DNA of 64,000 nucleotides from assembly GCA_040876265.1 (NCBI GenBank), contig JBBDPN010000002.1, positions 100,818 through 164,817 on the forward strand. The letters run 5' to 3'. The DNA comes from Candidatus Woykebacteria bacterium (GTDB lineage Bacteria > Patescibacteriota > Microgenomatia > Woykebacterales > RBG-16-39-9b). A program made the position numbers and the translations under genes. Positions 9,725 through 45,646 of the stretch are shown here, one piece after another (the first letter of the stretch is position 1; each line of letters starts with the position of its first letter). Under the pieces are notes generated by a model, which was given only the letters and a program-made list of their open reading frames with translations, made no database searches and was not told where the DNA came from.

Positions 9725-9826
9725 CTCCTTTATAACTAGTTTATTATCTCAAAAAAGTGGGCAATTGCAACTATAACAATGGTTGTTAAATAACCCAAAT
9801 CACGTAGATGATATACTGGATCTTCC

Positions 9827-20653: not shown

Positions 20654-20739
20654 TGTTTCACGCGTCAAGCGTCATGTATCATGTTTTTGGTTAATTAACA
20701 CCCCTACTTGATTCTTGACGCCTGATACTTGAGACCGAT

Positions 20740-25095: not shown

Positions 25096-25185
25096 TGGCG
25101 GAGGCGAGAGGATTCGAACCTCTGGTACCGTCACCGGCACACGCGATTTCCAGTCGCGCCCGTTCGACCACTCCGGCACGCCTCC
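25096..25185 (-). tRNA. tRNA-Ser (anticodon GGA), long variable arm, CCA encoded
   Basis: GGAGGCG...anticodon loop CTGGAAA, variable arm GTGCCGGTGACGGTACC, T-arm GAGGTTCGAATCCTC. Confidence 0.85.
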
Positions 25186-25287
25186 AAAACACTAGGGCAC
25201 TTAAGATAGCGCCCAAAGGCACTATCGCAAGACGCAAAGCGGCTTATATGGCCCCTCCAAAGTCAAAAGATTTTACTTCACCTAGGC

Positions 25288-26126: not shown

Positions 26127-26128
26127 TT

Positions 26129-26205
26129 TGGTATCCTCGGCGGGAATCGAACCCACAATCTTCGGCTCCGGAGGCCGACGCTTTGTCCGATTAAGCTACG
26201 AGGAC
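26129..26205 (-). tRNA. tRNA-Arg (anticodon CCG)
   Basis: GTCCTCG..anticodon loop CTCCGGA..T-arm GTGGGTTCGATTCCCGC..CGAGGAT-A-CCA. Confidence 0.8.
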
Positions 26206-26206
26206 T

Positions 26207-26298
26207 TGGCGGAGGGAGGAGGATTCGAACCTCCGAGGGCCTTACGACCCAACCGCTTTTCGAGAGCGGCGCATTAAACCGGGCTCTGCCATCCCTCC
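26207..26298 (-). tRNA. tRNA-Ser (anticodon CGA), long variable arm
   Basis: GGAGGGA..anticodon loop CTCGAAA..variable arm..GGAGGTTCGAATCCTCC..TCCCTCC-G-CCA; 1 nt from tRNA-Arg. Confidence 0.8.
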
Positions 26299-26309
26299 AA
26301 GTTTTAAAC

Positions 26310-26386
26310 TGGCGCGCTCGGTGAGACTCGAACTCACAACCTCCAGCTCCGCAAGCTGATGCTCTATCCTATTGAGCTACGAGCGC
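26310..26386 (-). tRNA. tRNA-Arg (anticodon read as GCG; isoacceptor assignment less certain)
   Basis: GCGCTCG-TA-GCTC..GAGC..anticodon loop TTGCGGA..GTGAGTTCGAGTCTCAC-CGAGCGC-G-CCA. Confidence 0.65.
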
Positions 26387-26540
26387 ACTCTATAGACCGC
26401 TCCATACTTCAAAACCAAGGTTTTTCAGTATTCCCGCGTCCTGCGACCACTCGCCTCGCGAAGCGGGCTTCGTGGGCTACCAATTGAACTACGGGGACAA
26501 AGTTTTCCAATTGTATCAAATGAAGCTTTTTGTCGCAAAG

Positions 26541-27191
26541 CTAGCTAGTAAGTTTGTGGAAGCCGTTGGAGAAAAAATCTGCGGCTGTATCTAGCCAAGT
26601 AGTTTTTGGCAATTCTCGATAGGGAATGTAACGGGCGAGGATTTCCCTTATCTTTTCCAAATCATGTTTGTTTATTAAAATAATTAGTCTCCTTGGCCAC
26701 TGTAAGTAAGTGTCTATGTACAAAATTGTAAAATTATTTTTTTCGCTGCTCCAAAAATCATCCAGTTCTTCCCAAATGTAACTATGCCCAGCAGTATTTA
26801 TACCTTGCGTGGTGATTTCATTTTCAATTGTTTCTGGTGGTATCGTCGAAAGGATATAAGCCACAAAAGCAAGTGCTAAAACAGGTGCGATGATGAAAAA
26901 TTCACGCACAAAAAGCAGGATTAGAATAATGGTCGCTACCAGCAAAAAGGTGTAGATAAACCATTTGGAACCTCTTTTGGTATATGGTCTGGAAAAACTC
27001 TGCCAACGAAATAGACTCTTTACTGATTTTTGCTTTTTCTTGCCTGTTTCAAGCCCCGAAATTTGCTCTTGCAGGCGCTCTACTTCTGCTTTTAAGGTTT
27101 TGACGGCACTTTGGGACGGCATTTGGTCTCCTAAAATTATTTTAAACCAAAAAATAAAATAGTGAAAGGGGTGTGGTTTACTCCTTAACAC
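26541..27191 (-). CDS. hypothetical membrane protein with N-terminal coiled-coil segment
   Basis: two TM helices; no family; probable start at internal MPSQSAVKTLKAE. Confidence 0.4.
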   Translation of the reverse strand: MLRSKPHPFHYFIFWFKIILGDQMPSQSAVKTLKAEVERLQEQISGLETGKKKQKSVKSLFRWQSFSRPYTKRGSKWFIYTFLLVATIILILLFVREFFIIAPVLALAFVAYILSTIPPETIENEITTQGINTAGHSYIWEELDDFWSSEKNNFTILYIDTYLQWPRRLIILINKHDLEKIREILARYIPYRELPKTTWLDTAADFFSNGFHKLTS

Positions 27192-27444
27192 CTTGGCGGT
27201 GTCTGTTTGAAAATATCCGAACGGAACTCTCTGGGCTCGGTGGGCGGAATTCCCCCCTCACCACCCTTCCGCCCGCCTCGCCTTGAACGGGAGCGGAAAG
27301 GCAAACTGCCAAAGAACCTGTTGAGAATGTCGGTTCGAACTTTACGAAGGCCAAAAGCGGGCTTTTCTTTACGGAATGAACCTTTTTTGATATCATACTC
27401 TTGAAAACATATCCATGAGTTGATGATATCAAAGTTTTGAAACC

Positions 27445-27642
27445 ATGGCAACAATAGGCGAGAATATCAAGAAATACCGCAACAAACTTGGCTTGACGCA
27501 AGACGATTTAGTGAGAAAGGCAGGTGTGAAGTACACCACCCTTACAAAAATCGAGGGCGACTTTGTGCAAAAGCCGAGTGTTCAGATGATAGCGAAAATC
27601 GCGAAGGCTTTGGACGTTTCAATAGAAGAATTGATAAAATAA
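27445..27642 (+). CDS. XRE-family helix-turn-helix transcriptional regulator
   Basis: IKKYRNKLGLTQDDLVRKAGVKYTTLTKIE HTH_3 pattern; 65 aa. Confidence 0.85.
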   Translation: MATIGENIKKYRNKLGLTQDDLVRKAGVKYTTLTKIEGDFVQKPSVQMIAKIAKALDVSIEELIK

Positions 27643-27651
27643 ATAACCTCC

Positions 27652-28242
27652 ATGAAAGATTCCATAACAAAACAGGAAGAGCTTGCAGAGCGTAAAGAAA
27701 ACAGGGAGGAAGATGTTATTAAGGAGCGAGTCGATCATCTCATTGAGCATCGGATTCCTTGGTTGATTCTGGGTATTTTAGGCGGATTTGTAGCTACTTT
27801 TGTTGTTTCAAAATACGAAGCAATTCTATCTGCCGATGTTCGACTCGCTTTTTTTATTCCCATCATTGTCTACTTAAGTGACGCGGTGGGAACTCAAACT
27901 GAAACTATCTATGTCCGCGTGCTTTCAGAAAAGAAAAAAATAAATTTTTACAAATACATTATTAAAGAAAGTTTTGTTGGGCTTGGTTTGGGTACCATTT
28001 CCGGAATACTTTTGGGGATTTTTGCTAACTATTGGCTTACATCGTCTCTGATTGGACTTACGATAGGAATTACAATGGTTATCAATCTTACTTTCGCGCC
28101 TATTCTTGCGGTTCTTATACCCAGCATTCTCTACAAGAAACATGCCGATCCTGCACTGGGCTCGGGCCCCGTTGCCACTATTATTCAAGATGTGATTAGT
28201 TTATTGGTTTATTTCCTAGTTGCGAGCTTTATTCTTTTTTGA
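27652..28242 (+). CDS. MgtE-family divalent-cation transporter, transmembrane domain only
   Basis: C-terminal DPALGSGPVATIIQDVISLLVYF matches MgtE TM5 signature; lacks MgtE N-terminal and CBS domains. Confidence 0.55.
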   Translation: MKDSITKQEELAERKENREEDVIKERVDHLIEHRIPWLILGILGGFVATFVVSKYEAILSADVRLAFFIPIIVYLSDAVGTQTETIYVRVLSEKKKINFYKYIIKESFVGLGLGTISGILLGIFANYWLTSSLIGLTIGITMVINLTFAPILAVLIPSILYKKHADPALGSGPVATIIQDVISLLVYFLVASFILF

Positions 28243-28332
28243 GAATTTGCCGCCAAAGAACCTGGCCGAACGGTGTTCGGCGAAATGCTGGATCGGATTT
28301 GCGCGGGCGAGCCAATGACTTCATTTCCTAAC

Positions 28333-28422
28333 TGGCGGAGAGGGTGGGATTCGAACCCACGAAGAGCTTGCGCCCTTAGCGGTTTTCAAGACCGCCGCAC
28401 TAGTCCACTATGCGACCTCTCC
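28333..28422 (-). tRNA. tRNA-Ser (anticodon TGA)
   Basis: GGAGAGG..anticodon loop CTTGAAA..long variable arm..GTGGGTTCGAATCCCAC..CCTCTCC-G-CCA. Confidence 0.85.
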
Positions 28423-28488
28423 ACTTCAGTTCACAGTAAGTTCACTGCAAGCTACTCAGTGGAACGTTTCCATTGAGGGTAAGCGAAA

Positions 28489-28581
28489 TGGCGGAGGGAG
28501 TGGGATTCGAACCCACGCGGCAGCTTTTAAACCACCAACGGTTTAGCAAACCGTCGCCTTAAACCACTCGGCCATCCCTCC
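28489..28581 (-). tRNA. tRNA-Ser (anticodon GCT)
   Basis: GGAGGGA-TG-GCCGAGTGGTTTAAGGCGAC..anticodon loop TTGCTAA..GTGGGTTCGAATCCCAC-TCCCTCC-G-CCA. Confidence 0.85.
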
Positions 28582-28616
28582 AAACACGCCAATTTTAGCA
28601 AAAAACCCCTTCAAGT

Positions 28617-29294
28617 TCAATGAGAACTAGCCAAGGTGATACCCCACACCTTGTTTGCTCCTTTTCTTTTTATGGCTGCGCCAGCGGCTTTTAGAGTTGC
28701 TCCGGTTGTCCAGACATCGTCGAAAACGATAAAATTTCTTCCCGAAACAGTCTCTTTCGGTAAAGATTGAAAGCTCCACTTCATTTGTTTTAATCTTTCT
28801 TTTCTTTTCAACCATACCTGGGGCTGTGTTTCTCTTGTCTTTTTTAGGAACTCCGGTTCATAAACCGCTTTTATACTCTTACTAAACAAGTCTCCCAAAA
28901 CTTCGGCTTGATTAAAACCTCTCCATCTTTTGCGAGAAGCGGAGAGGGGGATTGGAACCAGTGTGTAGCCAGAAAAATCGTACTTGCCCAGAGTTTTTAT
29001 TTTTCGCAGTTCCGCTTTTAAAACTTGCCTCAGATCAGTTACAAATCTGTACTTCAACGCGGTAACAATTTCTTTCATTGGGCTTTTATACTCATATATA
29101 CAAATCAGCCCGTCCAAAGACCAACTTCCTTTGCATTTACTGTGGGTGGTACCACCAATCGCTGCTTTTAAACATACCGGACAAAAAGATTTGGCTGGTT
29201 GTATTTTCGTTCTATCCGATTCGCACAAGTAACTTCCAAATTTTCCACAAGCTACACAGGTTTTTGGAAAGATTAGATCGAGTAACCCCATCAT
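28617..29294 (-). CDS. comF: ComF-family protein (double zinc ribbon + phosphoribosyltransferase domain)
   Basis: N-terminal CxxC pairs (CVACGKF..C...CPVC), C-terminal PRTase motif IVFDDVWTTGATL. Confidence 0.8.
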   Translation of the reverse strand: MMGLLDLIFPKTCVACGKFGSYLCESDRTKIQPAKSFCPVCLKAAIGGTTHSKCKGSWSLDGLICIYEYKSPMKEIVTALKYRFVTDLRQVLKAELRKIKTLGKYDFSGYTLVPIPLSASRKRWRGFNQAEVLGDLFSKSIKAVYEPEFLKKTRETQPQVWLKRKERLKQMKWSFQSLPKETVSGRNFIVFDDVWTTGATLKAAGAAIKRKGANKVWGITLASSH

Positions 29295-29430
29295 TGATAT
29301 TATAGTTCGCTCCGCACTTCCCCGCTCTTACTAAGAAAGGGTGGGGTCAGTACTCCCGCGTCCTGCCTGACCGTCCGGCAGGCGGGCGACCATTTCCTCC
29401 GATCAAATCGGAGTTCGCGGTCGAAGCACA

Positions 29431-29460
29431 CAAAAACCCACCTTTTAAGTGGGTTTTTGT
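29431..29460. terminator. bidirectional intrinsic terminator hairpin (AAAAACCCAC-CTTTTAA-GTGGGTTTTTGTG)
   Basis: 7-bp GC-containing stem flanked by A-run and T-run; sits immediately 3' of tmRNA. Confidence 0.6.
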
Positions 29461-29462
29461 GA

Positions 29463-29826
29463 TGGTGGAGCTGCCCGGCTCTTCCCCGGGGTCCGAAAAA
29501 AGAAACGACTATTAGATACTACAAGCTTATCTAACCTTAAATTTCCTTTAAGCCTCCTGGTTAGAACGATAAAGCTTAAAAGTTAGGTCTAATTGTTTAA
29601 GGACCGTTTTCAAAATGACCGATTCTGAATAAGTCCTCTTGGCTAAAGTTGTATCCCACACACTCCACCAAGAAAGAGACGTGCGAGATACCCGCTTTAC
29701 GCTACTGCGTAGGCGGGAGCCAAACGTTTGTTGGCAATTGTGTTTTGATCAGATTTTTTACGGTGTTTCCAATCGCCACCGGCTTGCACCAATAGTGCTT
29801 CTCTCCCGTCGAATATATACAGCCCC
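29463..29826 (-). ncRNA. ssrA: transfer-messenger RNA (ssrA/tmRNA), ~364 nt, standard one-piece
   Basis: 5' GGGGCTGTATATATTCGACGGGA... and 3' ...GGACCCCGGGGAAGAGCCGGGCAGCTCCACCA match tmRNA tRNA-like domain (cf. E. coli GGGGCUGAUUCUGGAUUCGACGGGA / GGACGCGGGUUCAACUCCCGCCAGCUCCACCA); internal ORF GCC AAC AAA CGT TTG GCT CCC GCC TAC GCA GTA GCG TAA gives tag ANKRLAPAYAVA; adjacent to smpB. Confidence 0.85.
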
Positions 29827-29859: not shown

Positions 29860-30336
29860 TTAGGATTTGTTAAGGTGCTCTCTTTGGTACTTAAGTTTAT
29901 CGCTGCGGAGGAATTTTTGTGCTTCTTTCTCTTCCTCCCTACGTTTTATTGCTTCCCGTTTGTCGTATTTCTTCTTGCCTCTCGCGAGAGCGATCTGTAT
30001 TTTAGCATAATTGCGCATAAAATACAAGCGTGTGGGCACAATAGTCAGGTTGGTGCCGGCAAGTTTCCCAGCCAGGTAGTCGATTTCCTTTTTGTTGAGG
30101 AGTAGTTTGCGACTGCGACGACTATCAGTATCTGCCAAAGCCCCTTTTTCATACGCCGCTATGTGCGCGTTTGTTAGAAAAGCTTCGCCCCCGCGCAGTA
30201 ATACATAAGCTTCATCCAGGGATATTTTACCGGCTCGAACTTGCTTTATCTCATCACCGGTTAGCACGATACCAGCTTCGATTTTCTCCAAAAGTTCATA
30301 GTTGAACCCTGCTTTTTTATTAACAATCGGTTTCAT
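29860..30336 (-). CDS. smpB: SsrA-binding protein SmpB
   Basis: full-length SmpB similarity (GIVLTGDEIKQVR, LLLNKKEIDYL, basic C-terminal tail). Confidence 0.9.
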   Translation of the reverse strand: MKPIVNKKAGFNYELLEKIEAGIVLTGDEIKQVRAGKISLDEAYVLLRGGEAFLTNAHIAAYEKGALADTDSRRSRKLLLNKKEIDYLAGKLAGTNLTIVPTRLYFMRNYAKIQIALARGKKKYDKREAIKRREEEKEAQKFLRSDKLKYQREHLNKS

Positions 30337-33151: not shown

Positions 33152-34912
33152 TCACTTAATTAGAACGTCGTAGAGAGAGGTCAAAATAACCAAATTTCCA
33201 AGTGAGCGCAGGTTAAATATTGACCGGAAGAAGCTTCCGGAAAACGTTTTACCAGTTGGATATTTGTTGCTTACGAATGTTAACGACGAGGTATGGCCCT
33301 TACCGTCAAAAGCGGTGATAACATTTGAAAGCGTTCCCACATCTTTAACCCCTAGTTTACTCAGCTCGCTTCTGACTTTACTGGCGGTCCAGCCAGGAGT
33401 ACGACCAGGACAGGCCGGGTTTTGGGAAAGATATTGATTATAATTACTGCTCTTTTGAGAAAGTAAGGCGGCGTTGAAGAGGTCAGTTATTTCTGCCTTT
33501 GTCAGCCAAGGAAAGGCCCCGGAGCAGCCCTTTCCGTTCCAAAAAGTATGGTACCAAGGACTACCACCGTACTTTGGGCCATCATAGGCTCCTTTGGGTC
33601 CAAAGTCTTTGATACCGCTAGCATAGGCTCGGGCACTACCCCAAACCTCTTGAGAAGAAAGGGTGTAACCACCGGCAGTGGATGCGTACCAAGCGGTAAT
33701 CGGCGAACCCGCGTAAGTTATCACAACTCCTTTTGTCGCGTTTACGGCCGAGCACCAGCGGCTATTATAAGTACCACTGCAGTTTAATTTATCGCTACTT
33801 GGACTGTAAACTTGGCATGATTGGCTGGTACAGATCGCGCTACCGGGGTTGGCCTGTATCCAATTCAAAGCGTAGGTACGAGCAGCAACTGCCTGAGCCT
33901 TCAGAGCTTCCATGTGCCAACTGCGCGGCATTTCGGAAATCCCTCTCAGGTAATTGCCCTCAAAAGAAATGTTTCCGTAGCCAGCCACATTTATCTTACT
34001 AGGAACTGGGTAGCTTCCCACCGAAACGCTCTTGTAGTAAGCCTTTAAAATGGTTTTGTAACTTTGGCCCGCAAGAGCCCGGCCGTATGCACCATACTGA
34101 CTCATGCCAACCCGGTGAGGGTAACCGTAAGTTAGAAATACGTAGGCGGGTGAAAATCCAGCGTTTGGTAAGGGCTCTGAAACAGGAGCGACATCACCAA
34201 CACTTTGGTTTTTTGAAGCTTTGGCAAGTTTCTCGGATATTAGCTTCTTTTGGGTGGAGGTTAGATTTTTCAGTGAAGACTCTATTTGGCCCACCTGGTA
34301 GGAAAGGAAATTTTGCTGGTTACTACTGGAAGCGATCTGGCCTTGGACAGCCGCGTATCTGGCAGCAATGGAGGCGGCCGCAGCTTCAAGATCATCTTTG
34401 ACAACCGCGATCTCATCACGAGTTTTCTGTATTTCCAGGACTTCTTCGTTAACAGCCGTGATGAGGTCTTTACTGGTATCAAGCACTTGTTTTTGAAATC
34501 CGGATAGGAGCGCAAAATCAGAAAATCCACCACTACTGATAAACAGTTCCAAGGGCGAGTCGCCAGGGTGTTTGTAGAGGAAACGCATTTGTTGGTCCCG
34601 GATATTTATCGCCACTTGCAGCTGGTCTCTTTTCTCGCTCAGATCTGCCTCCACTTGCGCCAAATCCTTTCTTATTGCCGCCACTTTTTTATTTGCACCA
34701 TCAAGCTCTGCGCTCGTGGTATAGGCAGCCGAATTTAGGGCGTTTATTTGCAGCTTTATATCCTCGATAGCTTTTTGGGTATCAGAGTACTCTTTGTTTT
34801 TCTGATCTATCTGTTTTTGCACATTGAGAAGATCATCCGCACTCGCAGCGGTGATTGATATGGTGAAAAGCAAACAAAATAGAAAGAAAAGACGGGCAGC
34901 TCTTTTTAGCAT
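33152..34912 (-). CDS. SpoIID/LytB-domain protein with N-terminal signal peptide and coiled coil
   Basis: HRVGMSQYGAYGRALAGQSYKTILKAYY matches SpoIID/LytB signature; W/G-rich C-terminal region. Confidence 0.6.
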   Translation of the reverse strand: MLKRAARLFFLFCLLFTISITAASADDLLNVQKQIDQKNKEYSDTQKAIEDIKLQINALNSAAYTTSAELDGANKKVAAIRKDLAQVEADLSEKRDQLQVAINIRDQQMRFLYKHPGDSPLELFISSGGFSDFALLSGFQKQVLDTSKDLITAVNEEVLEIQKTRDEIAVVKDDLEAAAASIAARYAAVQGQIASSSNQQNFLSYQVGQIESSLKNLTSTQKKLISEKLAKASKNQSVGDVAPVSEPLPNAGFSPAYVFLTYGYPHRVGMSQYGAYGRALAGQSYKTILKAYYKSVSVGSYPVPSKINVAGYGNISFEGNYLRGISEMPRSWHMEALKAQAVAARTYALNWIQANPGSAICTSQSCQVYSPSSDKLNCSGTYNSRWCSAVNATKGVVITYAGSPITAWYASTAGGYTLSSQEVWGSARAYASGIKDFGPKGAYDGPKYGGSPWYHTFWNGKGCSGAFPWLTKAEITDLFNAALLSQKSSNYNQYLSQNPACPGRTPGWTASKVRSELSKLGVKDVGTLSNVITAFDGKGHTSSLTFVSNKYPTGKTFSGSFFRSIFNLRSLGNLVILTSLYDVLIK

Positions 34913-35235: not shown

Positions 35236-36003
35236 ATGAAAAAAATCTCTCTACCGAGCGTAACTTTCCTAATCTTATCATTGATTGGCCTTATCTTTCT
35301 TCATCAGAAGGTGGCGGCCCAAGAAGTTTTCGTCGGATCGCTTATTAATGATAATAAAACGCTATCCAGCATATCATTTACAGGTCTGAAGCCTGGTCAC
35401 TACTACATAGTTGAGCTGACTGGAAGATGGGGTGAAAGAGACTATTTGGAAGGAACAGACGATAAGCAACTCCACCTGGCCAGTAGTAGTGGAGTAGTCA
35501 AGATAGGGTCGATATGTGAAAACGGAGAAGGTGACAGGGACAACTGCGGCGAGGAGTTCCATTCAGGTGATTACAATATGAGAGTACTTGAGTTTAATGG
35601 CACTCCAACTAGCCTTCGAATTGATGATCAGTGGGATCAGATAGGAGCTGTAGTAACCGCTTATTCCTTTAATGTGGACGAGGATGGCAACGTTGGCGAC
35701 GTTGTTGAGTCGCCAGGTGGTGCTGTAATTGGTGATCCAGACTTAACTCGCGATCCAAATCCAAACGCCAGAGAGGCCGCAAATACATTTCTTGGCTTTG
35801 GCCTTGGGACGGCGGGTGGGATAGCATTCCTGCTGATGGTGTTTGGAGCGTATCGGTTGATATTTGCCGCTGGAAATCCAGAGAGCATTCAGCAGGGTAG
35901 AGAAGTGATCACCGCTGCTATTGCCGGCCTGCTGGTTATTGTCTTTGCGGTGTTTATCCTGCGCTTCCTTGGCTACACTATTCTGAACATTGGAGGTCTC
36001 TGA
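35236..36003 (+). CDS. exported protein with C-terminal VirB2/TrbC-like pilin module
   Basis: signal peptide; C-terminal TM-GNPESIQQGREVITAAIAGLLVIVFA-TM motif shared with the four downstream paralogs. Confidence 0.55.
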   Translation: MKKISLPSVTFLILSLIGLIFLHQKVAAQEVFVGSLINDNKTLSSISFTGLKPGHYYIVELTGRWGERDYLEGTDDKQLHLASSSGVVKIGSICENGEGDRDNCGEEFHSGDYNMRVLEFNGTPTSLRIDDQWDQIGAVVTAYSFNVDEDGNVGDVVESPGGAVIGDPDLTRDPNPNAREAANTFLGFGLGTAGGIAFLLMVFGAYRLIFAAGNPESIQQGREVITAAIAGLLVIVFAVFILRFLGYTILNIGGL

Positions 36004-36609
36004 ATGGACGACTGGTTTGGAGTTAGTGGTGGTGCGAATTTTTCAAACATAGGTGAGGCTATTTCTTTACTTCTACTGCCTATCTTCACTTTGGCGGGGA
36101 TGATCGCCCTTCTTTTTGTTATGTGGGGAGGGCTACGCTATATGCTTTCCCGTGGCGATCCAAAGGCTGCCGAGGCGGCCCGCGGTACTTTGACCAGCGC
36201 GATAATTGGGCTTCTGATAGTGCTTTTTTCAGCGGCTATTTTTGTTATTTTTGCAGACATCCTAAGGATTGATATTTTCGTCGGTGCTGTACCGACAGCG
36301 CAAGCAGCTGTATCTATCGGTGACACGGTACGGTTGGGTGGTGGCCTTCGAATAGGGTTCTTTCAGAACATCGGCCAAGTGTTTTCCGGATTTGTCTTGT
36401 TAGCACTGGCGGCCGCAGCCCTGATTTTTCTGGGGATGATGATCTGGGGTGGTATTCGCTACCTAAATGCTGGTGGCAACCCGGAAAATGCTGAATCTGC
36501 CCGTAGCACCCTCACCAGCGCCGGAATCGGTCTATTGATTATTGTAGCTGCTTTCCTGATAATAGAACTAGCAACTAACGTGATCGGGCTAGCCAGCATC
36601 TTTAATTAA
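36004..36609 (+). CDS. tandem-duplicated VirB2/TrbC-like pilin protein (two pilin modules)
   Basis: two copies of TM-G(D/N)P(K/E)..(A/S)AR.TLTSA.IGLLI-TM. Confidence 0.55.
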   Translation: MDDWFGVSGGANFSNIGEAISLLLLPIFTLAGMIALLFVMWGGLRYMLSRGDPKAAEAARGTLTSAIIGLLIVLFSAAIFVIFADILRIDIFVGAVPTAQAAVSIGDTVRLGGGLRIGFFQNIGQVFSGFVLLALAAAALIFLGMMIWGGIRYLNAGGNPENAESARSTLTSAGIGLLIIVAAFLIIELATNVIGLASIFN

Positions 36610-36611
36610 TT

Positions 36612-36920
36612 ATGGGGCCTTCTGTAGGAAAAATAGCCTTACCATCACTGGCTTTTCTAAACATCGGCGGTATCGTGGGTAATTTACTTACCATTGCTTT
36701 TTTTGCCGCTGCTTTATTTTTTCTTATCCAAGTTGCTATCGGTGGTATATCGTGGATAAACGCCGGCGGTGATCCCAAAACCCTTGAAGCAGCTCGTGGC
36801 CGGATTACGAACGCCGTAATTGGCATTGTAATTGTTGCCGCCGCTTTTGCAATCACTATCATCGTCACCACAGCTCTGGGAATAAATATTTTTAAAGCCG
36901 GTGGCATCACTATACCTTAA
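36612..36920 (+). CDS. VirB2/TrbC-like pilin paralog
   Basis: GGDPKTLEAARGRITNAVIGIVIVAAAF motif between two TM helices. Confidence 0.55.
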   Translation: MGPSVGKIALPSLAFLNIGGIVGNLLTIAFFAAALFFLIQVAIGGISWINAGGDPKTLEAARGRITNAVIGIVIVAAAFAITIIVTTALGINIFKAGGITIP

Positions 36921-36992
36921 AGAACCGCTTGCATTGCTTGTTTACTTTTGTATAAAATAATAGGAGGAGGTGAGTTTTAAAAGAAAGACGTT

Positions 36993-37376
36993 ATGAAAAA
37001 AATATTAACTGCCGCTACTTCGCTAGGATTTTTACTTTCATCGGCTGCACCAGCACTTGCAGCTGAGTTTACATTTGTAGGGGACGTGCCGTTTAGAAAT
37101 CTTGGGGAGCTGCTTGGAAATCTGTTAATCCTTATCTTCGCCGGTGCCGCTATTTTGGCCTTTATCTTTATTGTCATCGGGGGCTTGCAGTGGATAACCG
37201 CTGGGGGTGACAAAATGGCTGCTCAGTCCGCTCGAGATAGGATTACCGCTGCGGTCGTCGGTCTAGTAATTATCGTCGCCGCGTTTGCGTTGACTCTGAT
37301 CATCACCACTGTACTTGGTGTAAACATATTCGAAGGGACCATTGTCTTCCCAGAGCCAGAAACACCGGTATTCTAG
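36993..37376 (+). CDS. VirB2/TrbC-like pilin paralog with signal peptide
   Basis: signal peptide AAPALA; GGDKMAAQSARDRITAAVVGLVIIVAAF. Confidence 0.55.
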   Translation: MKKILTAATSLGFLLSSAAPALAAEFTFVGDVPFRNLGELLGNLLILIFAGAAILAFIFIVIGGLQWITAGGDKMAAQSARDRITAAVVGLVIIVAAFALTLIITTVLGVNIFEGTIVFPEPETPVF

Positions 37377-37401
37377 AACCAAATTGACGCCGATTTCTTG
37401 A

Positions 37402-37776
37402 TTGGTTAAAATCTATTTAATGAGGATAAAGGTTTTATGTATCGTTTTTTCCTTTTTACTTTTTCCTTTTTACTTTACCAACGCTTCCTCTGTTTTCGCC
37501 CAAGAGCCAGCTACTCTTCAGGACCTTGAAACCGTCTTCCGAAGTGTAATCACTTGGGTTGCCGTAATAGGTGGCTTTCTAGCCTTTATCGCCATAATAA
37601 TCGGGGGATTTAAATATATTGTGGCTCGGGGTGATCCAAAGGCAGTTTCTAGCGCTCAAAATACCATTACCTGGGCGGTGATTGGCCTAGTACTGATCAT
37701 TGTAGCCTGGCTCGTACTAGTGGCTATTTCTCAATTCACCGAACAGAACGTCAGGGTATTCGATATTCCATTTTAG
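37402..37776 (+). CDS. VirB2/TrbC-like pilin paralog with signal peptide
   Basis: signal peptide SVFA; RGDPKAVSSAQNTITWAVIGLVLIIVAW. Confidence 0.55.
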   Translation: MVKIYLMRIKVLCIVFSFLLFPFYFTNASSVFAQEPATLQDLETVFRSVITWVAVIGGFLAFIAIIIGGFKYIVARGDPKAVSSAQNTITWAVIGLVLIIVAWLVLVAISQFTEQNVRVFDIPF

Positions 37777-37836: not shown

Positions 37837-38811
37837 CTATTTAGTCACAGCTTGCACGATTGTTTTTATCTCAACTCGTTCCCCCCGGTCCCCAAAAGTA
37901 AAACCCTCTGCGAAGTACACCGGCCGGAGATATTTATCTTTGTTCGTCAGTAAGTAAGTGAGCTTGATATCAGTGTATCTGACCCTAATAGTTTTAGTTA
38001 GTATCGGGATTGGCCCCCCAATACCAACTATTGTCCCAGAACCCTTCTCTAATTCTTCCCTGACCTCCTCGATAGATTTTATTTTGTAGGTAGATTGATC
38101 GGAAAATTTCAGGGGCTGCAAACTAGCTTTTATCTTTACGATACTATTATCGACAGCTATCCAAATTTGGATTGTATCTTGAATCCCTCCCTCGTTTATT
38201 ACTTCATAATCGCCAGCCGCTTTGCTAAAACTAAATGAATATGTATCAAATTTCTCCTCCCCTTCTACCACCGTTGCCTCAAGTCTACCGGCCACTAACA
38301 AGCGCTCTCTATCTTCCAACTTTATATTCGCCACGTCCCCAATCAAGTTTAGACCCTTTAAAGTCTGTTCCGCCTTTACCGTTGCGTCTCCTTCAGAGAT
38401 AGTAGATTTCTTGATAGGTTTTATATTTGTATAAGTAAATTCCGCTGTAACCGGATCAAATCTTAGATTTTTTGTTTTTTCGCTCCAAACCCTCTGGCCG
38501 CTAATTTCTTTTTCAGAGCTATCAAAGCCAAGCTTCTCTACAATAGTTTCTAAATCAACTGCCGACGCGTTTACATAAACATTCATTACCTCTGGGGTCT
38601 TTCCCTTCGTTCTTACGTCCGAAGCGGTTCCCTCTACGTCAATTTCTTTCGTAAGAGCTGATTTTATTTGTATGGGTTCTAGTTTACCAAACTTTTCTTC
38701 AGCTGCCGGCCCTCTGGACAACCACCAGTAACCGGTAAAAACTACCGTGATAAGGAACAGTGCTGGGATAGACCAATTTTTAATTATTGTCTGGAAATTT
38801 TTTAAACTCAT
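37837..38811 (-). CDS. hypothetical membrane-anchored extracellular protein
   Basis: N-terminal TM anchor, beta-rich soluble domain; overlaps downstream M23 gene by 4 nt. Confidence 0.4.
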   Translation of the reverse strand: MSLKNFQTIIKNWSIPALFLITVVFTGYWWLSRGPAAEEKFGKLEPIQIKSALTKEIDVEGTASDVRTKGKTPEVMNVYVNASAVDLETIVEKLGFDSSEKEISGQRVWSEKTKNLRFDPVTAEFTYTNIKPIKKSTISEGDATVKAEQTLKGLNLIGDVANIKLEDRERLLVAGRLEATVVEGEEKFDTYSFSFSKAAGDYEVINEGGIQDTIQIWIAVDNSIVKIKASLQPLKFSDQSTYKIKSIEEVREELEKGSGTIVGIGGPIPILTKTIRVRYTDIKLTYLLTNKDKYLRPVYFAEGFTFGDRGERVEIKTIVQAVTK

Positions 38812-40013
38812 GGGTGAGGCTTCAATGCACCATAATCTTTAGGATCAACTAGTGATCCTGATAATTCTAGCTCATAATGTACGTGGCTTCCCAAGGAAGC
38901 GCCAGTATCATCCATAATCGCCAGCGGTGTGCTTGTATTCACTACATCACCAACACCCACGGTGACCGATCCTCTCTGCAAATGCGCAAAAAGAGCTTTG
39001 AAGGGGCCGCTGGATAGCTCGATCCTTTGACCGTAGCAGTTACCGCACTCACCATCATCGTGGACAACAGTTACCGTTGCCAGGCCGGAGAAGGGCGAAT
39101 AAACGTTCCAATCTCCGCCAGTTGTGGCAATATCAATACCCTCATGGACATAATAATTTCCAGGGCAGTAGGTGCTACCAGGATTTGGTGTACCGGTTGG
39201 CCAAAAATCACTTCCCGAACAATATACCGCCTTAAGTGGTGCATAGGCTGGCGGCCCTTCCGGAGGATCCCCGATAATTACTGTACCGGTACCTTCTCCT
39301 GGTGTCAGCTGCCCATCCAGATTTCCCTCAACAGTAACATCATTAGAATATATAATATCCATATCTGTAGGGACAGTACAGTCAATGTCTCTAGTGTCGC
39401 TTTCTCCTGCAGCTAATTGCGAGATAGTATAGCTAGTACCAGCGCATTGAGGATCGACTACTTGAATATTGGTCACGTCGGACTCCCCCTCATTTGTTAC
39501 TACGATCGTGTAGGTAACAACCGCCGTGGAACCCGCCGGTCCCAAAGGTAGGGAAGCTACGTTGGGCGTTTTTTGAACGGCTAACACGCTGCCAGCTTCA
39601 GCTTCGGGTATACCACCGACAATAACCATGATAAAAACGCTAATAATAACCACTATAAAAACGATTACAATAACGATAGGTATGAGTATAAGTGCCGCTA
39701 TCACTCCTAGAGCGATTGCGGCTTTTTTAACAACCCCTTGCAGGTATTTTAGCGGGTGGCGAACAGCCTGAAAGGCCTGATCAGCTACCTCGGCGGCGAT
39801 AGCAGCTTCCGGACCAGCAGCGGCGGCGGCCTTTTTTAATCCTTCTTTGGCTACTTGCTTACCACCCTGCTTAACTGCCTCCTTTCCTGCCTGTTTACCG
39901 GCCTCCTTGCCGGCCATTTTCCCGCCTAGTTTTTCACCAGCTTTACGAGCACCATGTCGACCTAGTTGGTCTGCTCCAGATTCTTGTTCTGACTTTTCTT
40001 CTTCCTCGGCCAT
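38808..40013 (-). CDS. M23-family metallopeptidase with N-terminal Lys/Ala-rich repeats and TM segment
   Basis: C-terminal HEGIDIAT...GSHVHYELE M23 motifs; AGKEAGKQAGKEAVKQGGKQ repeats. Confidence 0.7.
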   Translation of the reverse strand: MAEEEEKSEQESGADQLGRHGARKAGEKLGGKMAGKEAGKQAGKEAVKQGGKQVAKEGLKKAAAAAGPEAAIAAEVADQAFQAVRHPLKYLQGVVKKAAIALGVIAALILIPIVIVIVFIVVIISVFIMVIVGGIPEAEAGSVLAVQKTPNVASLPLGPAGSTAVVTYTIVVTNEGESDVTNIQVVDPQCAGTSYTISQLAAGESDTRDIDCTVPTDMDIIYSNDVTVEGNLDGQLTPGEGTGTVIIGDPPEGPPAYAPLKAVYCSGSDFWPTGTPNPGSTYCPGNYYVHEGIDIATTGGDWNVYSPFSGLATVTVVHDDGECGNCYGQRIELSSGPFKALFAHLQRGSVTVGVGDVVNTSTPLAIMDDTGASLGSHVHYELELSGSLVDPKDYGALKPHP

Positions 40014-40146: not shown

Positions 40147-42078
40147 ATGTCCCTGCCCATAAAGCTAAAGCAGCTTATACTTGGCATTTTAATAACTGTA
40201 ATATTATTCGCTATTCCGACAGCCGCGCTCGCTCAATCAACTAGAGAGTCACCAGCGGGCGAGGGTGCCCAAACCCAAAATTCACAACCACAATATTATA
40301 TAGTGCCTATCCCAAAGTCTGGTGAGGAGACGGGCATTACCCCGATCCCATTACCAAGCGATGATCCCCGTATCCAACAAGCTGCAATTTGGGATGATCT
40401 TGCTAACGCTTTTGGAGCTATCGCCGGAGGGATAGCTAATATAGCCGGTGATGTGGTTGACTGTGTCCTAAGCGCCCCTACCTGTGTTATGGGCGGTTTG
40501 CTCGGTCTCTTCGATTATGGCATGTCTTCAGTCGAAACTTTTGCACTCAGACAAACCGGGGGTGAAGCTTCAGTTGAAGCAGTCGCTGTAGCAGCATCGG
40601 GTAACCCAGTCGCAATACAGGAATTTTTGGATCGAGTATTAGAGGAGGACAATCCCGCTTCGTTCGGTCTTTTAGGATTTGCGGGTAGTTCCTTACCTAC
40701 TTTATTGGCGATGCCCCTACCGATAAACAGCACGCAGTATGTTGCTTCAATAAATCCGTTTACTACGGCAAACGCGGCTATCGGCGACGGCTTTAATGAT
40801 TTATCTGATTCCAACATAATATTAAATATTTGGACAAAAGTGCGTGACGTGTCGTACATCTTGGCAGTAGCGGTACTGGTGATAATTGGTTTCATGATTA
40901 TGCTGCGGGTCCCCATTGGTCCCAGAAATGTTGTCAGCCTCCAAAACACCTTGCCCAGGATCGCTATCGCCCTTTTGCTCGTTACTTTTAGCTTTACTAT
41001 CTCGGGCGTAATGATAGATTTCGTTAGGTTGCTTCACGGTGTCCTGGACAGCTTAGTTGACGTTCCTATTACTTCTACTGCAGGTCTGCTAGGGTTCTTT
41101 GTTGTCATGATAACATCCTTAACAGGAGCTTTATTCGTTACTGGTGGCTTGGCTTTTGGAGCGATACTTTTTATATTGTTACTCACTCTGCTCCTTGCTA
41201 TTGCTATCTTGATAGTTTTCATCATGATCGCTTTCAAACTTATCACTCGGTACGTTATTTTTCTGCTCTTGACGATCTTTGCTCCTCTCTTTTTTATCTT
41301 CGGGGCTATACCAAAAGCCGAAGGCGCTGTCATCTACTGGTTCCGCCGAGCCGCAGCTGCCTTGGTAGCTATCCCGGTCACTTCCCTGGTCATTCAACTA
41401 TCCTTCGCCATTGGTTTTAGCCCAATAAGCGAGCTTGATTTCTTAGCCATACCGGACTTGGAACTTACCGGTGGTGCAGCCGGAGTCTTCCTATCTTGGA
41501 TATTCCTTGCCCCCGTTATTGGACTAGGTATGTTTTTCTACGCTACAAAGGTCCCGGATATGGTTGACCAGATTTTTGATATTAAGCCTGGCCCCCGCGG
41601 CGGCATCGGACCTGGTATAATGCTCGCACCGATTGCTTTAGCTGGAAAGGGTGTCAGATTGGCTTCTGATTACGGTAGATCCCAACAAGGTGTTGAAGCT
41701 CTAGGAAGAACCAACATACCGATAGTTGCCCCTATCGCTAAGTGGGCAGGGAAAACTTTCTACCCACAGGGACATGCAGGTCGCAATCCCGCTGGGCCTG
41801 CAACTATGAATTTGGAAGGAGACGCCGGCCGAACAGATGTGGATAACCAAGATGGTGGATTTCCACCAGGTCCAGCAGGACCACAGCCAGGTGGTCCACA
41901 AGCAGGTGGTAGTGATAGTGCCGTAACAAACGTCACGCCAGGGAAAGGTGCCACAACCCAACAAGGTGGTTCCAGCACGGATGTCAGCAACAGCAATATC
42001 GGCAATCGTGTTGCGAACCTTGAAGGTAGGTCAGCGGAACTTGAAAAAAAGGTCAACAAGGGTACTAAAAAAACATAA
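40147..42078 (+). CDS. polytopic membrane protein, VirB6/TrbL-like topology (signal peptide, large extracytoplasmic domain, 5-6 TM, Gly/Pro-rich tail)
   Basis: topology and position in T4SS-like locus; no strong sequence motif. Confidence 0.35.
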   Translation: MSLPIKLKQLILGILITVILFAIPTAALAQSTRESPAGEGAQTQNSQPQYYIVPIPKSGEETGITPIPLPSDDPRIQQAAIWDDLANAFGAIAGGIANIAGDVVDCVLSAPTCVMGGLLGLFDYGMSSVETFALRQTGGEASVEAVAVAASGNPVAIQEFLDRVLEEDNPASFGLLGFAGSSLPTLLAMPLPINSTQYVASINPFTTANAAIGDGFNDLSDSNIILNIWTKVRDVSYILAVAVLVIIGFMIMLRVPIGPRNVVSLQNTLPRIAIALLLVTFSFTISGVMIDFVRLLHGVLDSLVDVPITSTAGLLGFFVVMITSLTGALFVTGGLAFGAILFILLLTLLLAIAILIVFIMIAFKLITRYVIFLLLTIFAPLFFIFGAIPKAEGAVIYWFRRAAAALVAIPVTSLVIQLSFAIGFSPISELDFLAIPDLELTGGAAGVFLSWIFLAPVIGLGMFFYATKVPDMVDQIFDIKPGPRGGIGPGIMLAPIALAGKGVRLASDYGRSQQGVEALGRTNIPIVAPIAKWAGKTFYPQGHAGRNPAGPATMNLEGDAGRTDVDNQDGGFPPGPAGPQPGGPQAGGSDSAVTNVTPGKGATTQQGGSSTDVSNSNIGNRVANLEGRSAELEKKVNKGTKKT

Positions 42079-42140: not shown

Positions 42141-45020
42141 TTACGCGGTGAGTAGCTGGTTCTTGCTGGTGAAGAACACAGCCCTAATCGCTCGTATCTT
42201 TTCCCTCCTTTCGTACTCAGGTAGAGCGGCGTAGAGACCCATGAGGTCGGTCTCGAGCTGCGGCCAATCCTCCGGCCCCATGTTGATGATGCGCGTAGCC
42301 AACTCGCTGCCAGGCTGTGGATCCGTCCCGAATCCTGCGTAGGCGTGGATCCACTCCGCTATCTGAGCTATGTTGGTCAGCAGAACCATTTTTCCTTGGG
42401 TGCGGCCTTCCTGAGTCAGGTTCTTGCTGGTCGCCCAGTGCCATCCAACCCTACGACTGAGCAACACATTCCTCGCCCACTGCATGTCATCCTCACCGTT
42501 CCAGGGCTGATCTTCCTGGACCTCGGCCTTGCCATGTAGAGCGTCGTAGACCGGGTTCAGATAAGACATGAAGCCCAAAGCCATGTACTGGCTCTGACCC
42601 CAGGCATCGTCTCCCGTACGACCCGCGATACCGTGAGCCGCCCATTTGCCAAAGATGCTGCCAGTGAAGGCGCGGCTGTTGTAGATGTAGAACATTTCAG
42701 CCGCTCGGTCCCTCATCCACAAGGTTGCCCGACGTCGGTGGAGGTTGGTCACGTACTCGTTGTCGGGACGCCCGTGACGGATGTCGGGCATGCCGTGGCT
42801 CTCCTTTGCCACAACACTAATGGTGTCGTGGATCCGGTTGAGCTCGGCTTCGCTGTGCTCCTCCTCGACACGCTGTGCAAATGGTTGGCTGGGTTGGTTG
42901 CGCCAGAGCTCGTACAGGAAACCCTTGTAGTAGTTGCCCACCTCCTCCATCGGCCTCCAGAATACGTAGCCCATGGTGAGGAAGTCGCCCTGTCCGTTGG
43001 CTATGGCCTGGTTGTAGGTCTCCTCGCTCATGTGACAGTAGGCACGGATGGCCTCGTCTCCCACGACCCGACGATAGATCTCCAAGACCCGAGGTCCGTC
43101 GGGGGTTTTCATGTTGATGCCCCCTTGGGTGGGGTCGAGGATCAACCGGTGGATAAGCCTTTCCGGAAGCCTGGGTGCCCCGTCGGATTCGTATCCCCAG
43201 AGCGAGTCCATGGGATCGAAGCCGAAGTACTCCCAAAGGGCCGCTAGTTGATGGAAGTCTGTCGGCAAGGGTGCCCCCGCCACCAGCTTCGTGAACTCGT
43301 CGAAGTCCATGTTGGACCAGGCGAGCTTGGTGATGAAGCCCCTGTCCGGATCGGTTGATCCGTGCCAGAATCCGTAGTAGGGGAGGTAGAACTCTGCGTC
43401 ACCGAGACCTCGTTCTGCCAAACCCCCGATGTGGGACAGGTACCAGTCGCTCACCGCCTTCGCTAGGTCGCCGAGGCGCAGCATACCTATGTTTTGCTCC
43501 CTCTTTTGACCACTCCGCTGTTTCTTGTGGGACTGCGCCTTGCCGTCCATGACATGGCTTTCCGCGGATCTCTCCAGAGCCAGGTCTGAAGCAGAGTGTG
43601 ATGGACCGATGTTCCACCATTCACAATACTCCAGCTCCAAATTCTGGGTCGGATCATCAGAAGGTCTGCGGGACAAGACACTAAAGAATCGTTTCCACAG
43701 GGATCTCTGGACCCGACTGGGTTCTTGCTTCACTCGGCGCCTGGAGGGGAGGATTGCCTCAGCCATCCGCTCGGAGTCCGAGACGATGCCGTGGGCGACG
43801 TCCCGTACTGGGTAGTAGATGCCGTAGACGTCACGGTAGTGGTTTGGGTGGGGATCGAAGTTGAGCCGACCGTAGCCCTGGTTGAGCTCAAAGAGCTCCT
43901 GTACCTGAGCTTTTGTCCGTATCAACGGACCGTACATTGCTTCACGAGCTTCTTCGATCTTCGCCAACTTCTCGTCGTCGTAAAGCGGCTCCTCCTCACC
44001 GGTCAGTGGATTTCTGACAAGTGGGTTTGGAGTTTCGATCAGCTTCGGTTGGTAGTAGTTTCCGTCCGCTTCGTAGATCGGCATCCCATCTGAATCTAGC
44101 TCCATGAGACGAGTCGGGTTGGCTACTGTACCGTGTCGTCGGTTGGCGTGGTAGTCCACCTGGACGTTGTTGGGATCGTAGTTTCGAGGATCCTCCGCAG
44201 CCCCGCTTTGGATCAGCACTTCTGCGTAGTTGAAGGTGATCAACTGCTCGGTAGGGTTATATGGCACCCAATCTGTGAACTTCTCGCTCAGCCACTTTCC
44301 TGGGGGGTTACCGGCGGCTCTCCACAGGAACTCCTTGATGCGAAGCTCCATGATCTGCTCCAACGGAACGCCCTTGAGTTCTGGGTTCATGGCCCAGTAA
44401 AGCTCCACCACTTTGGGCTCCCAAGGAGTGGTGATGAGCGAAAAGTCGTAGTCATCCCTGGGCACGAAGAAGGGAACCCAACGACGGATTTCAACACGCT
44501 CCTCGTGACATTTGAGATCGTGCATAAGTCCGCCGAACCTTGCTAAGAGGGTCCACCACCGACTCTTCGAGAGTTTCTGGAGCTCCTTTGGCTGGAGTAT
44601 ATTCACCGGCTCCAGGGACTTGTTTCCCTCATCATCCACCACAATGCGGTGGACAACGGAGATCACCGAGTCAACCAGCAAGATTGGCTTGTGAAAGTAC
44701 TCGGTGAGAGTTCTAGGAAAACGGTCCTCTGGCATCGGTAGTACACCAGGGCTTGGCATGACATTCGCGTAGCGGTGTAGTTCCTGCCTGGGTAACTCCT
44801 GCTTCCTGGACTCGTTCGCCACAGCCAAGTTGAGCTGGGGAACAGTTACGGCCGCACTGCGGTCTCCAGGTCGACCCATAACCTGAGAGACCATACCCGC
44901 CCTTAGGTAAGTGGCCAGAGGCGTGCGCCCACCTACTGATGTCGACGGAGCAGCAAAAGCCTCTTCACGCTGTTGCCTCAACCTCTCCAATCGCTGTTCG
45001 CGAGTTTCCTCCTGAGCCAT
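42141..45020 (-). CDS. large orphan protein (959 aa), GC-rich gene (~59% GC), W/Y/F-rich, no signal peptide
   Basis: long uninterrupted ORF with strong GC3 bias unlike neighbours; many shadow ORFs on both strands; no Walker or HUH motifs recognised. Confidence 0.6.
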   Translation of the reverse strand: MAQEETREQRLERLRQQREEAFAAPSTSVGGRTPLATYLRAGMVSQVMGRPGDRSAAVTVPQLNLAVANESRKQELPRQELHRYANVMPSPGVLPMPEDRFPRTLTEYFHKPILLVDSVISVVHRIVVDDEGNKSLEPVNILQPKELQKLSKSRWWTLLARFGGLMHDLKCHEERVEIRRWVPFFVPRDDYDFSLITTPWEPKVVELYWAMNPELKGVPLEQIMELRIKEFLWRAAGNPPGKWLSEKFTDWVPYNPTEQLITFNYAEVLIQSGAAEDPRNYDPNNVQVDYHANRRHGTVANPTRLMELDSDGMPIYEADGNYYQPKLIETPNPLVRNPLTGEEEPLYDDEKLAKIEEAREAMYGPLIRTKAQVQELFELNQGYGRLNFDPHPNHYRDVYGIYYPVRDVAHGIVSDSERMAEAILPSRRRVKQEPSRVQRSLWKRFFSVLSRRPSDDPTQNLELEYCEWWNIGPSHSASDLALERSAESHVMDGKAQSHKKQRSGQKREQNIGMLRLGDLAKAVSDWYLSHIGGLAERGLGDAEFYLPYYGFWHGSTDPDRGFITKLAWSNMDFDEFTKLVAGAPLPTDFHQLAALWEYFGFDPMDSLWGYESDGAPRLPERLIHRLILDPTQGGINMKTPDGPRVLEIYRRVVGDEAIRAYCHMSEETYNQAIANGQGDFLTMGYVFWRPMEEVGNYYKGFLYELWRNQPSQPFAQRVEEEHSEAELNRIHDTISVVAKESHGMPDIRHGRPDNEYVTNLHRRRATLWMRDRAAEMFYIYNSRAFTGSIFGKWAAHGIAGRTGDDAWGQSQYMALGFMSYLNPVYDALHGKAEVQEDQPWNGEDDMQWARNVLLSRRVGWHWATSKNLTQEGRTQGKMVLLTNIAQIAEWIHAYAGFGTDPQPGSELATRIINMGPEDWPQLETDLMGLYAALPEYERREKIRAIRAVFFTSKNQLLTA

Positions 45021-45646
45021 TTCTAATTCCTCCTATTATTTTGGCCTTACGGCCACTGGATGGATTTCTCCACCCTGTGTGGCCTCGGCCAAAACACAGG
45101 GGGAGGATTTGCACGATATTTTGTTTTTCGTGCTATTAAGTTGTTCGACCCCCTCTTTGGAGGGCTCACCCTAGTCTCAATAATTTAAGACCAAAATGAG
45201 CACCCCAATTTGGGAAATTTTCAACTTTTTTGTTAATGTTCTTTTTCCTAAAAAGAAAGTGGGCTCTGGTGACAAATCTTGTTTGCTACCAAAGCCCACC
45301 TCCCAAGGGGGTCCTTACAATACACTTACCCCGGCGGGCTTTGTGCGAAAATATCTAGATCAATAAGCTTATTTTTCATTGGAAAAAAGTATACCAGAGA
45401 TGAAGCTAGATGTCAATCCTATAGTCTCCTACATATTTTCGAGATTTGCGGGCTCCTTAATTTCTTAAGTATTCTCGGATACTGCGCTAGGCAACTCCTC
45501 CCTAGCTAAGCACCATCATTAGATGAGACCAAACTACTATATAAATTGCACCTAAATGTTGGTACGATGACTATCCGATTAAGCTAATTCCCCACTCCTA
45601 ATTAGCTGTTGTTTTTTTATTTATTTAGAGTTATTATCGGGGATAT

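Follow-up and report, generated by a model that had tools for sequence, protein, structure and literature searches.

Analysis of a 64,000-nucleotide stretch of a Candidatus Woykebacteria genome (contig JBBDPN010000002.1 of assembly GCA_040876265.1; hereafter the window) revealed that a 959-amino-acid (aa) protein of no described family is encoded at a fixed position within a chromosomal type IV secretion system (T4SS) locus. The data are best explained if this protein is a lineage-specific soluble protein dedicated to the origin-proximal T4SS of Woykebacteria-like Microgenomates, and we tentatively favor the reading that it is a dedicated substrate or effector of this system, its C-terminal domain being the docking module. 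Candidatus Woykebacteria belong to the Microgenomates group of the Patescibacteria (candidate phyla radiation, CPR), which live on other microbes and represent a large part of bacterial diversity. An earlier note, made from the letters of this DNA alone, had named the protein as the window's best candidate for something undescribed, and it is indeed the most undescribed large gene there, with no described family; the minus-strand location, the T4SS locus beside dnaA, the anomalous codon usage and the structured leader reported below were not part of that note.

The gene is an uninterrupted open reading frame (ORF) of 959 codons plus stop on the minus strand (42141..45020). It is the longest ORF of the window, as had been claimed, the second-longest being 901 aa. 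The start codon (ATG, 45020-45018) is positioned ~8 nt 3' of an AGGAGG Shine-Dalgarno (SD) sequence (45034-45029), and the identical NCBI record is named hypothetical protein WD187_03780 [Candidatus Woykebacteria bacterium]. Given that GC content by codon position is 0.60/0.42/0.70, that there are 20 homologues, that synteny is conserved and that the C domain is modelled confidently, we concluded that this is a genuine gene and not a chance ORF. The N-terminus reads MAQEETREQRLERLRQQREE, matching the earlier description. A 19-residue hydropathy scan detected no transmembrane-like or signal-peptide-like segment, predicting a soluble protein in agreement with the cytoplasmic type proposed before, and a scan for Walker A, HExxH, HUH, DDxxD and DEAD motifs found none in the protein and none conserved across the family, so that the absence of a recognizable catalytic motif stands. 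The description "aromatic-rich" held for tryptophan, which is ~2.5-fold enriched (2.8% vs 1.0%) as a family-wide trait (2.6-3.9%), whereas the total of tryptophan, tyrosine and phenylalanine is merely 10.6% vs ~8.4% in other window genes.

An exhaustive HMMER search of 1.84 billion representative proteins returned 20 relatives, with full-length identities to the 959-aa protein of up to 48%. Profile searches of a 5.8-billion-protein database with two family alignments added no further members, a scan of GTDB species representatives found no further locus of the gene, and a metagenome scan returned only contigs already in the set or 99.8% identical to those. The protein had zero matches in Pfam, PHROGs, NCBIfam and PADLOC, no Pfam domain was found in any of 15 aligned family members, and PDB sequence searches with the single protein, a C-domain profile and a full-length profile reached E=0.14 at best, which is noise. 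The search of viral and plasmid sequences that the earlier note had proposed was run with megablast and tblastn against phage and plasmid records and gave no match, upholding the orphan status. Comparison with known classes gave the same picture. The protein has neither the Pfam/NCBIfam match nor the membrane anchor or Walker A motif of a type IV coupling protein (T4CP; VirD4/TcpA), and relaxase (MOB) features are likewise missing, as none of the 15 members has a Pfam match and the family has no conserved H.H and no invariant Tyr or His. Profiles of VirB3, VirB4, TrsD, VirB6, VirB8, VirB1 and VirB2 match neighbors and not the 959-aa protein, which has no transmembrane segment, and PHROGs, PADLOC and the phage and plasmid records do not place it among phage, plasmid or defence-system proteins. 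In the libraries and literature covered, there is no description of the family, of its C-domain fold or of its leader; the surrounding secretion system is already known.

The window is chromosomal, carrying dnaA, dnaN and recF (52767-56498) as well as seven tRNAs, tmRNA and SmpB, and the 959-aa gene lies inside an origin-proximal T4SS-like locus (Table 1). In 7/7 organisms with enough flanking DNA to be informative (window, L001+L002, L005, L006-8, L009, L010 and L011; L numbers denote related loci and P numbers family members) the slot of the gene is the same, with the PrgI-VirB4 operon on one side and a polytopic membrane protein on the other, even where only the C domain is recognizable at 27-28% identity; one of these syntenic relatives is a complete 915-kb genome. 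The 643-aa polytopic membrane protein keeps its position in all loci and has no match in Pfam or NCBIfam. No T4CP was found among the Pfam/NCBIfam matches of the locus proteins. In its VirB4, TrsD/TraC-like and PrgI/VirB3 proteins, its VirB2-like pilin array and its cell-wall hydrolases the locus corresponds to the MPF-FATA-like T4SS of Patescibacteria as outlined in PMC12102498 and PMC10633639, with which it also shares the lack of a relaxase and the location beside dnaA-dnaN-recF. It differs in the 959-aa protein, which corresponds to no component catalogued in the gene-repertoire section of PMC12102498; in neither that section nor a term search of this source was anything found on the family, on conserved genes left unassigned or on GC content. 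According to PMC12102498, patescibacterial T4SSs have no relaxase and usually no linked coupling protein and are often found beside dnaA. Southlakia epibionticum requires its T4SS locus, SEML1_0006-0019, to grow as an epibiont (PMC10633639), and these systems are proposed to export proteins, although no substrate is known (PMC10633639, PMC12102498).

Iterative segment search showed that the family is modular, with N and M regions confined to a close group (the N region is recognizable only in P0001-P0008 and P0011) and a C domain common to all members. The first ~700 residues are fast-evolving. In most family members the N-terminus is acidic and the extreme C-terminus conserved (VY.T.HN..LD-like). 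Seven residues of the C domain are invariant (R751, E755, R772, E775, G797, R801 and D826), except that in P0005, P0007, P0008 and P0020 this domain is very divergent, does not keep them and was recognized only by hhalign (97.9% probability across the first ~150 residues). The full-length AlphaFold model was poor, with a mean predicted local distance difference test score (pLDDT) of 58, the C domain excepted; modelled alone, the C domain reached a pLDDT of 86 and a predicted template-modelling score (pTM) of 0.82, with 13 helices. The Foldseek check recommended earlier was run on these models. The C-domain model had no significant match in the PDB (best E=0.57, template-modelling score <0.3), and neither the full model against the PDB nor the C-domain model against BFVD gave anything below E=0.5.

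Comparing the window with related loci gene by gene, we found that the 959-aa protein is only 27-40% identical to its counterparts (0.07-0.63 bits per residue), as against 73-82% for VirB4 (vs L005, L006 and L009-L011), 59-70% for TrsD, 47-61% for PrgI and 38-55% for DnaN and RecF. Its divergence resembles that of the M23, 324-aa and CarboxypepD_reg proteins of the locus. Thus, judged by these alignments, the protein evolves like the envelope or host-facing parts, unlike the cytoplasmic motor, despite having no export signal, and this is the main argument from which we infer export from the cell or contact with the host. As a separate observation, the VirB4-like secretion motor is more conserved than the replication proteins DnaN and RecF.

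In the reading that we tentatively favor, the 959-aa protein would be translocated by the T4SS as an effector, its fast-evolving N-terminal ~700 residues would act on or at the host cell, and its helical C domain (~260 residues, with the conserved extreme C-terminus) would be recognized by the highly conserved VirB4/TrsD motor. Pointing to such a role are the slot fixed in 7/7 organisms down to 27% identity, an envelope-like divergence in a protein predicted to be soluble, the variable N and M regions joined to a conserved C domain, the protein export proposed for patescibacterial T4SSs in the absence of a relaxase, an own promoter and a leader seen upstream of this gene only, and the failure to match machine parts, enzymes or proteins of defence systems, phages or plasmids that are already known. 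T4SS effectors with C-terminal recognition domains include the X-Tfe proteins of Xanthomonas, with their XVIPCD domain, and the Bep proteins of Bartonella, with their BID domain. The 959-aa protein is like these in combining a variable N-terminal region with a C-terminal domain common to the members, in being soluble without a Sec signal, and in belonging to a bacterium-on-bacterium lifestyle where an effector would make sense. It is unlike them in that its C domain has no homology to XVIPCD or BID and no solved chain resembles it by sequence or in Foldseek, in having a C domain about twice as large, and in being encoded once per genome, within the machine locus itself, with no VirD4-type coupling protein nearby. 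A second parallel concerns the gene directly upstream, which in 5/7 informative loci encodes an acidic helical protein of 270-376 aa. In the window this partner is listed with 286 aa and has an N-terminal Zn-ribbon (CPKC...CDVC), a long helical stretch and an acidic tail; its positional counterparts are found in L001, L005, L009 and L010. In Agrobacterium, the translocated protein VirE2 likewise has a small acidic partner, the ~65-aa chaperone VirE1, encoded just upstream. The partner resembles VirE1 in its acidity and position, and it shares the codon anomaly of the 959-aa gene; it differs in its size and Zn-ribbon, in being absent from two loci and in having no homology.

Several points weigh against an effector. 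Secretion itself is inferred, and a fixed slot filled once per genome is no less typical of a machine component than of an effector. A coupling protein that would recognize a substrate is missing from the locus, and a C domain of ~260 aa is large for a signal; moreover, the invariant R/E/D residues are lost in the four divergent members. Fast evolution can also reflect weak constraint. Finally, the N and M regions are so poorly modelled that no activity can be proposed for either.

A second explanation, which we judge almost as likely as the effector one, is that the protein is a non-secreted, cytoplasmic T4SS accessory, such as an assembly platform, an adaptor or a coupling-protein stand-in without nucleoside triphosphatase (NTPase) activity, docking on VirB4/TrsD or the polytopic membrane protein. 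Such a part would fit the strict single-copy synteny within the machine locus, the convergent and adjacent arrangement with the VirB6-like membrane protein and the lack of a T4CP in the locus. Furthermore, VirB8 and VirB6 homologues are reported in PMC12102498 to be undetectable in Microgenomatia, and therefore unrecognized machine parts are to be expected there. Less easily reconciled with an accessory are the identity of 27-40%, compared with 73-82% for the cytoplasmic motor that it would bind, and the two-thirds of its length that are unrecognizable between subgroups. The separate transcription with a dedicated leader, and the lack of an NTPase motif and of a transmembrane anchor, also speak against it.

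In a third explanation, the protein is an enzyme or a nucleic-acid or cell-envelope factor whose catalytic C domain carries an R/E/R/E/R/D site and which is linked to the locus by co-regulation only; in one version it would be a very divergent DNA-processing protein replacing the missing relaxase. Each of the seven invariant residues is either charged or a glycine, and PMC12102498 allows that very different relaxases may await discovery. However, neither Tyr nor His is among the invariant residues, an HUH motif is absent, no enzyme in Pfam or the PDB matches by sequence or fold, four members have lost the invariant residues, and no oriT-like element or DNA-processing partner was seen. These data speak neither clearly for nor clearly against a catalytic C domain, which we regard as unlikely. 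The earlier note had likened the protein to (alpha/alpha)-barrel carbohydrate-active enzymes. The all-helical C-terminal third and the richness in Trp agree with this idea, but none of the 15 members matches a glycoside hydrolase or other carbohydrate-active enzyme family in Pfam, Foldseek found no (alpha/alpha)6-barrel or other solved structure similar to it in the PDB, and there is no signal peptide that would take it to an envelope or extracellular substrate. The suggestion is thus effectively rejected.

These comparisons bear on a T4SS that, in Patescibacteria, is essential to the epibiotic lifestyle in the only genetically tractable member and, unlike its conjugative ancestors, has neither relaxase nor coupling protein. 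Being predicted soluble, fast-evolving, locked into the T4SS locus, equipped with an own regulatory leader and of a fold unlike solved ones, the 959-aa protein is a concrete candidate for the missing substrate or for an unrecognized machine part in Microgenomates.

The effector reading further includes expression separate from the machine operons. The gene is preceded by a sigma-70-like promoter, with a similar TTGACA...TACAAT aligned in L004, and by a ~370-nt 5' leader whose nucleotide sequence is conserved between loci with proteins just 33-48% identical. Searches with nhmmer found three leader elements once per locus and always upstream of the 959-aa gene; they were present in the window and five other organisms, were weak in L009 and were not detected by nhmmer in L006 and L011. 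Covariation among five leader sequences supports a predicted structure of local hairpins: 83% of cells were paired vs 34-52% in slid controls, double-sided changes were seen at 23 pairs vs 5-12 in slid controls, and 0/500 shuffles reached the observed value. Within the leader, a terminator-like hairpin (GGGCUUUGG...CCAGAGCCC, followed by a U-run) lies ~230 nt upstream of the start codon; its helix (helix 2) is 100% paired and has one compensatory GC/AU pair. A second hairpin carries CCUCC, which pairs locally with GGUGGAG (helix 7, 95% paired) or, in a predicted alternative, with the GGAGG of the SD. With its promoter, its hairpins, its stem plus U-run and a CCUCC facing either a decoy GGUGGAG or the SD, the leader is like known riboregulatory leaders, both intrinsic-terminator attenuators and SD-sequestering 5' untranslated regions. 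It is unlike them in that the window leader has no match in Rfam (nothing at the gathering threshold and only noise at E below 1) and in the ~230 nt between the terminator-like element and the start codon. Production of the 959-aa protein may be controlled at the RNA level, through a terminator-like hairpin and an anti-SD/SD switch that would act apart from the machine operons.

The most surprising and least explained element is the codon usage of the gene and the structure of its mRNA. GC content at third codon positions (GC3) is 0.70 in the 959-aa gene, 0.69 in the 286-aa partner and 0.75 in a 188-aa membrane protein gene, compared with 0.29-0.53 in all other window genes. The excess was found in all nine orthologues (0.51-0.70 vs 0.30-0.54 in neighbors; window, L001, L003-L006 and L009-L011), and the positional partner gene likewise has a raised GC3, as does, in three loci, a small lipoprotein gene (0.52-0.61). 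The shift is greatest in two-fold codon families (TAC 0.92 vs 0.56, AAC 0.88 vs 0.42, ATC 0.76 vs 0.29, AAG 0.76 vs 0.32) and weak in four-fold families. Codon optimisation for high expression was ruled out, as the same organism has an ordinary, AT-ending codon usage in GroEL (0.42), GroES (0.32), L25 (0.37), RpoD (0.38) and the pilins. An overall GC of 0.57 against a background of ~0.44, with sharp boundaries, would suggest a recently imported gene, i.e. an island, prophage or plasmid remnant from a higher-GC donor. Yet all nine orthologues, which share one chromosomal position, show the GC3 excess despite 27-48% protein identity, the shift has the codon-family pattern just described, there was no phage, plasmid or PHROGs match, and neither an integrase nor repeats were seen in the annotated neighborhood. 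Since synonymous sites are saturated at 27-48% protein identity, the bias must be actively maintained, which rules out un-ameliorated transfer. Recent import is effectively refuted by the conserved synteny together with the conserved bias. A further proposal, that high GC3 marks leaderless T4SS substrates, was ruled out by the GC3-rich lipoprotein and by the 188-aa membrane protein, which has four transmembrane segments. The gene of the latter (2888-3454, minus strand; no family match), which has the highest GC3 of the window, is flanked by genes of a pyridine-nucleotide disulphide oxidoreductase (1168-2532) and a glycosyltransferase (3599-4633).

The coding sequence of the 959-aa gene folds more stably than its synonymous shuffles (z=-5.1), as do those of eight orthologues (z=-3.7 to -10.6), whereas VirB4, the VirB6-like gene and GroEL are near zero. 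Under a stricter null that keeps the protein, the codon usage and all dinucleotide counts, sense-strand z was -3.1 for the 959-aa gene, -3.2 to -9.4 for five orthologues and -3.2 for the 286-aa partner. The effect is not unique: one of five controls (leucyl-tRNA synthetase, LeuRS, 61773-63863) equalled the window gene under this null (z=-3.2), and the antisense strand of the 959-aa gene was also negative. The excess is spread along the whole gene, the first 150 nt being if anything less structured than the shuffles. As a full explanation of the GC3 bias the structure excess was ruled out, because the 188-aa gene has none (z=-0.9) and LeuRS, which is not GC3-rich, does; the two are related and not identical phenomena. 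We know of no textbook explanation for such a gene-specific codon dialect (GC3 ~0.7 in a 0.4 genome) with extra mRNA structure, and a search of the literature on CPR codon anomalies and on Woykebacteria biology found nothing relevant. The dialect and the structure could point to RNA-level control of host-interaction genes. Because the codon usage is unlike that of the organism's own housekeeping and highly expressed genes, is maintained over deep divergence and is coupled to a structured transcript and leader, one may even imagine that the relaxase-less T4SS delivers the nucleic acid of the gene (mRNA or DNA), and not only the protein, for expression in the host cell, or in a milder version that the mRNA is stored stably and translationally silent until host contact switches it on. 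Both versions would build on a gene adapted to expression outside the normal translational regime of the epibiont, and we consider them, this premise included, highly improbable.

Table 1. Features of the 959-aa gene, its leader and the surrounding T4SS locus (window coordinates unless a locus is named)
Feature	Position	Strand	Basis or remark
Coding sequence of the 959-aa orphan protein (stop included)	42141..45020	-	ORF and translation, 20 homologues
N region, aa 1-360	43941..45020	-	segment search; acidic N-terminus, mixed alpha/beta, low-to-medium pLDDT
M region, aa 361-700	42921..43940	-	recognizable only in the close group; poor model
C domain, aa 701-959	42144..42920	-	alignment and model; conserved, all-alpha, 13 helices
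SD sequence AGGAGG	45029..45034	-	sequence; AAGGAGG kept in all leaders
Sigma-70-like promoter, TTGACA-17-TATACT with TG	45388..45416	-	11/12 consensus matches
Conserved structured 5' leader, ~370 nt	45021..45387	-	nucleotide conservation, covariation
Terminator-like hairpin and U-run, inside leader	45250..45297	-	sequence, covariation
Hairpin with 5' CCUCC (anti-SD)	45068..45106	-	pairs GGUGGAG locally, or SD
Leader copies (window 45021-45416 including promoter)	L001:1540-1917, L003:182-550, L004:295-630, L005:9617-10000, L010:9530-10000, L009:9690-10000		
SpoIID	33152-34912	-	library matches
Five T4SS_pilin genes (VirB2-like)	35236-37776	+	library matches
324-aa protein	37837-38811	-	
M23 peptidase	38808-40013	-	library matches
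Convergent polytopic membrane protein, 643 aa, ~8 transmembrane segments, positional VirB6 candidate	40147..42078	+	hydropathy, conserved position
Small upstream ORF and ParE-like toxin, overlapping by 20 nt	45647-45868, 45849-46142	+	Pfam E=1.7e-14 (ParE-like)
Upstream partner gene, 286 aa as listed	46304..47164	-	probable true start ATG 47110
PrgI/VirB3-like, first gene of divergent T4SS operon (47283..52776)	47283-48089	+	Pfam/NCBIfam
Coiled-coil/CarboxypepD_reg protein	48090-50057	+	Pfam/NCBIfam
TrsD/TraC-like	50063-50953	+	Pfam/NCBIfam
VirB4-like ATPase	50950-52776	+	Pfam/NCBIfam

Further observations concern the neighborhood. The ParE-like toxin and its small companion ORF, a probable antitoxin without Pfam match, are inserted on the opposite strand between the 286-aa partner and the promoter of the 959-aa gene, and no such pair was called at the corresponding position of other loci. 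In L010, a 23S-rRNA-IVS-family protein (7183-7521) and a nucleotidyltransferase/HEPN pair (20412-21117) are inserted in the T4SS locus, whose intergenic gaps are thus repeated landing sites of small toxin-antitoxin-like modules. The small lipoprotein gene (signal peptide plus lipobox) lies beside the polytopic membrane protein on the minus strand of L001 (6947-7789), L006 (15445-16335) and L009 (14478-15137); it has no counterpart in the window, and none was called at that position in L010 and L011. Elsewhere in the window, an RNA-gene cluster on the minus strand (25096-29826) comprises four tRNA-Ser and two tRNA-Arg genes within 3.5 kb, followed by tmRNA (29463-29826), which smpB (29860-30336) adjoins. 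A cluster of genes with oxidative-stress and redox functions (1168-2532, 7323-10375 and 14610-15131) encodes the pyridine-nucleotide disulphide oxidoreductase, two luciferase-like monooxygenases, MsrA and a nickel superoxide dismutase, a set worthy of note for so small a genome.

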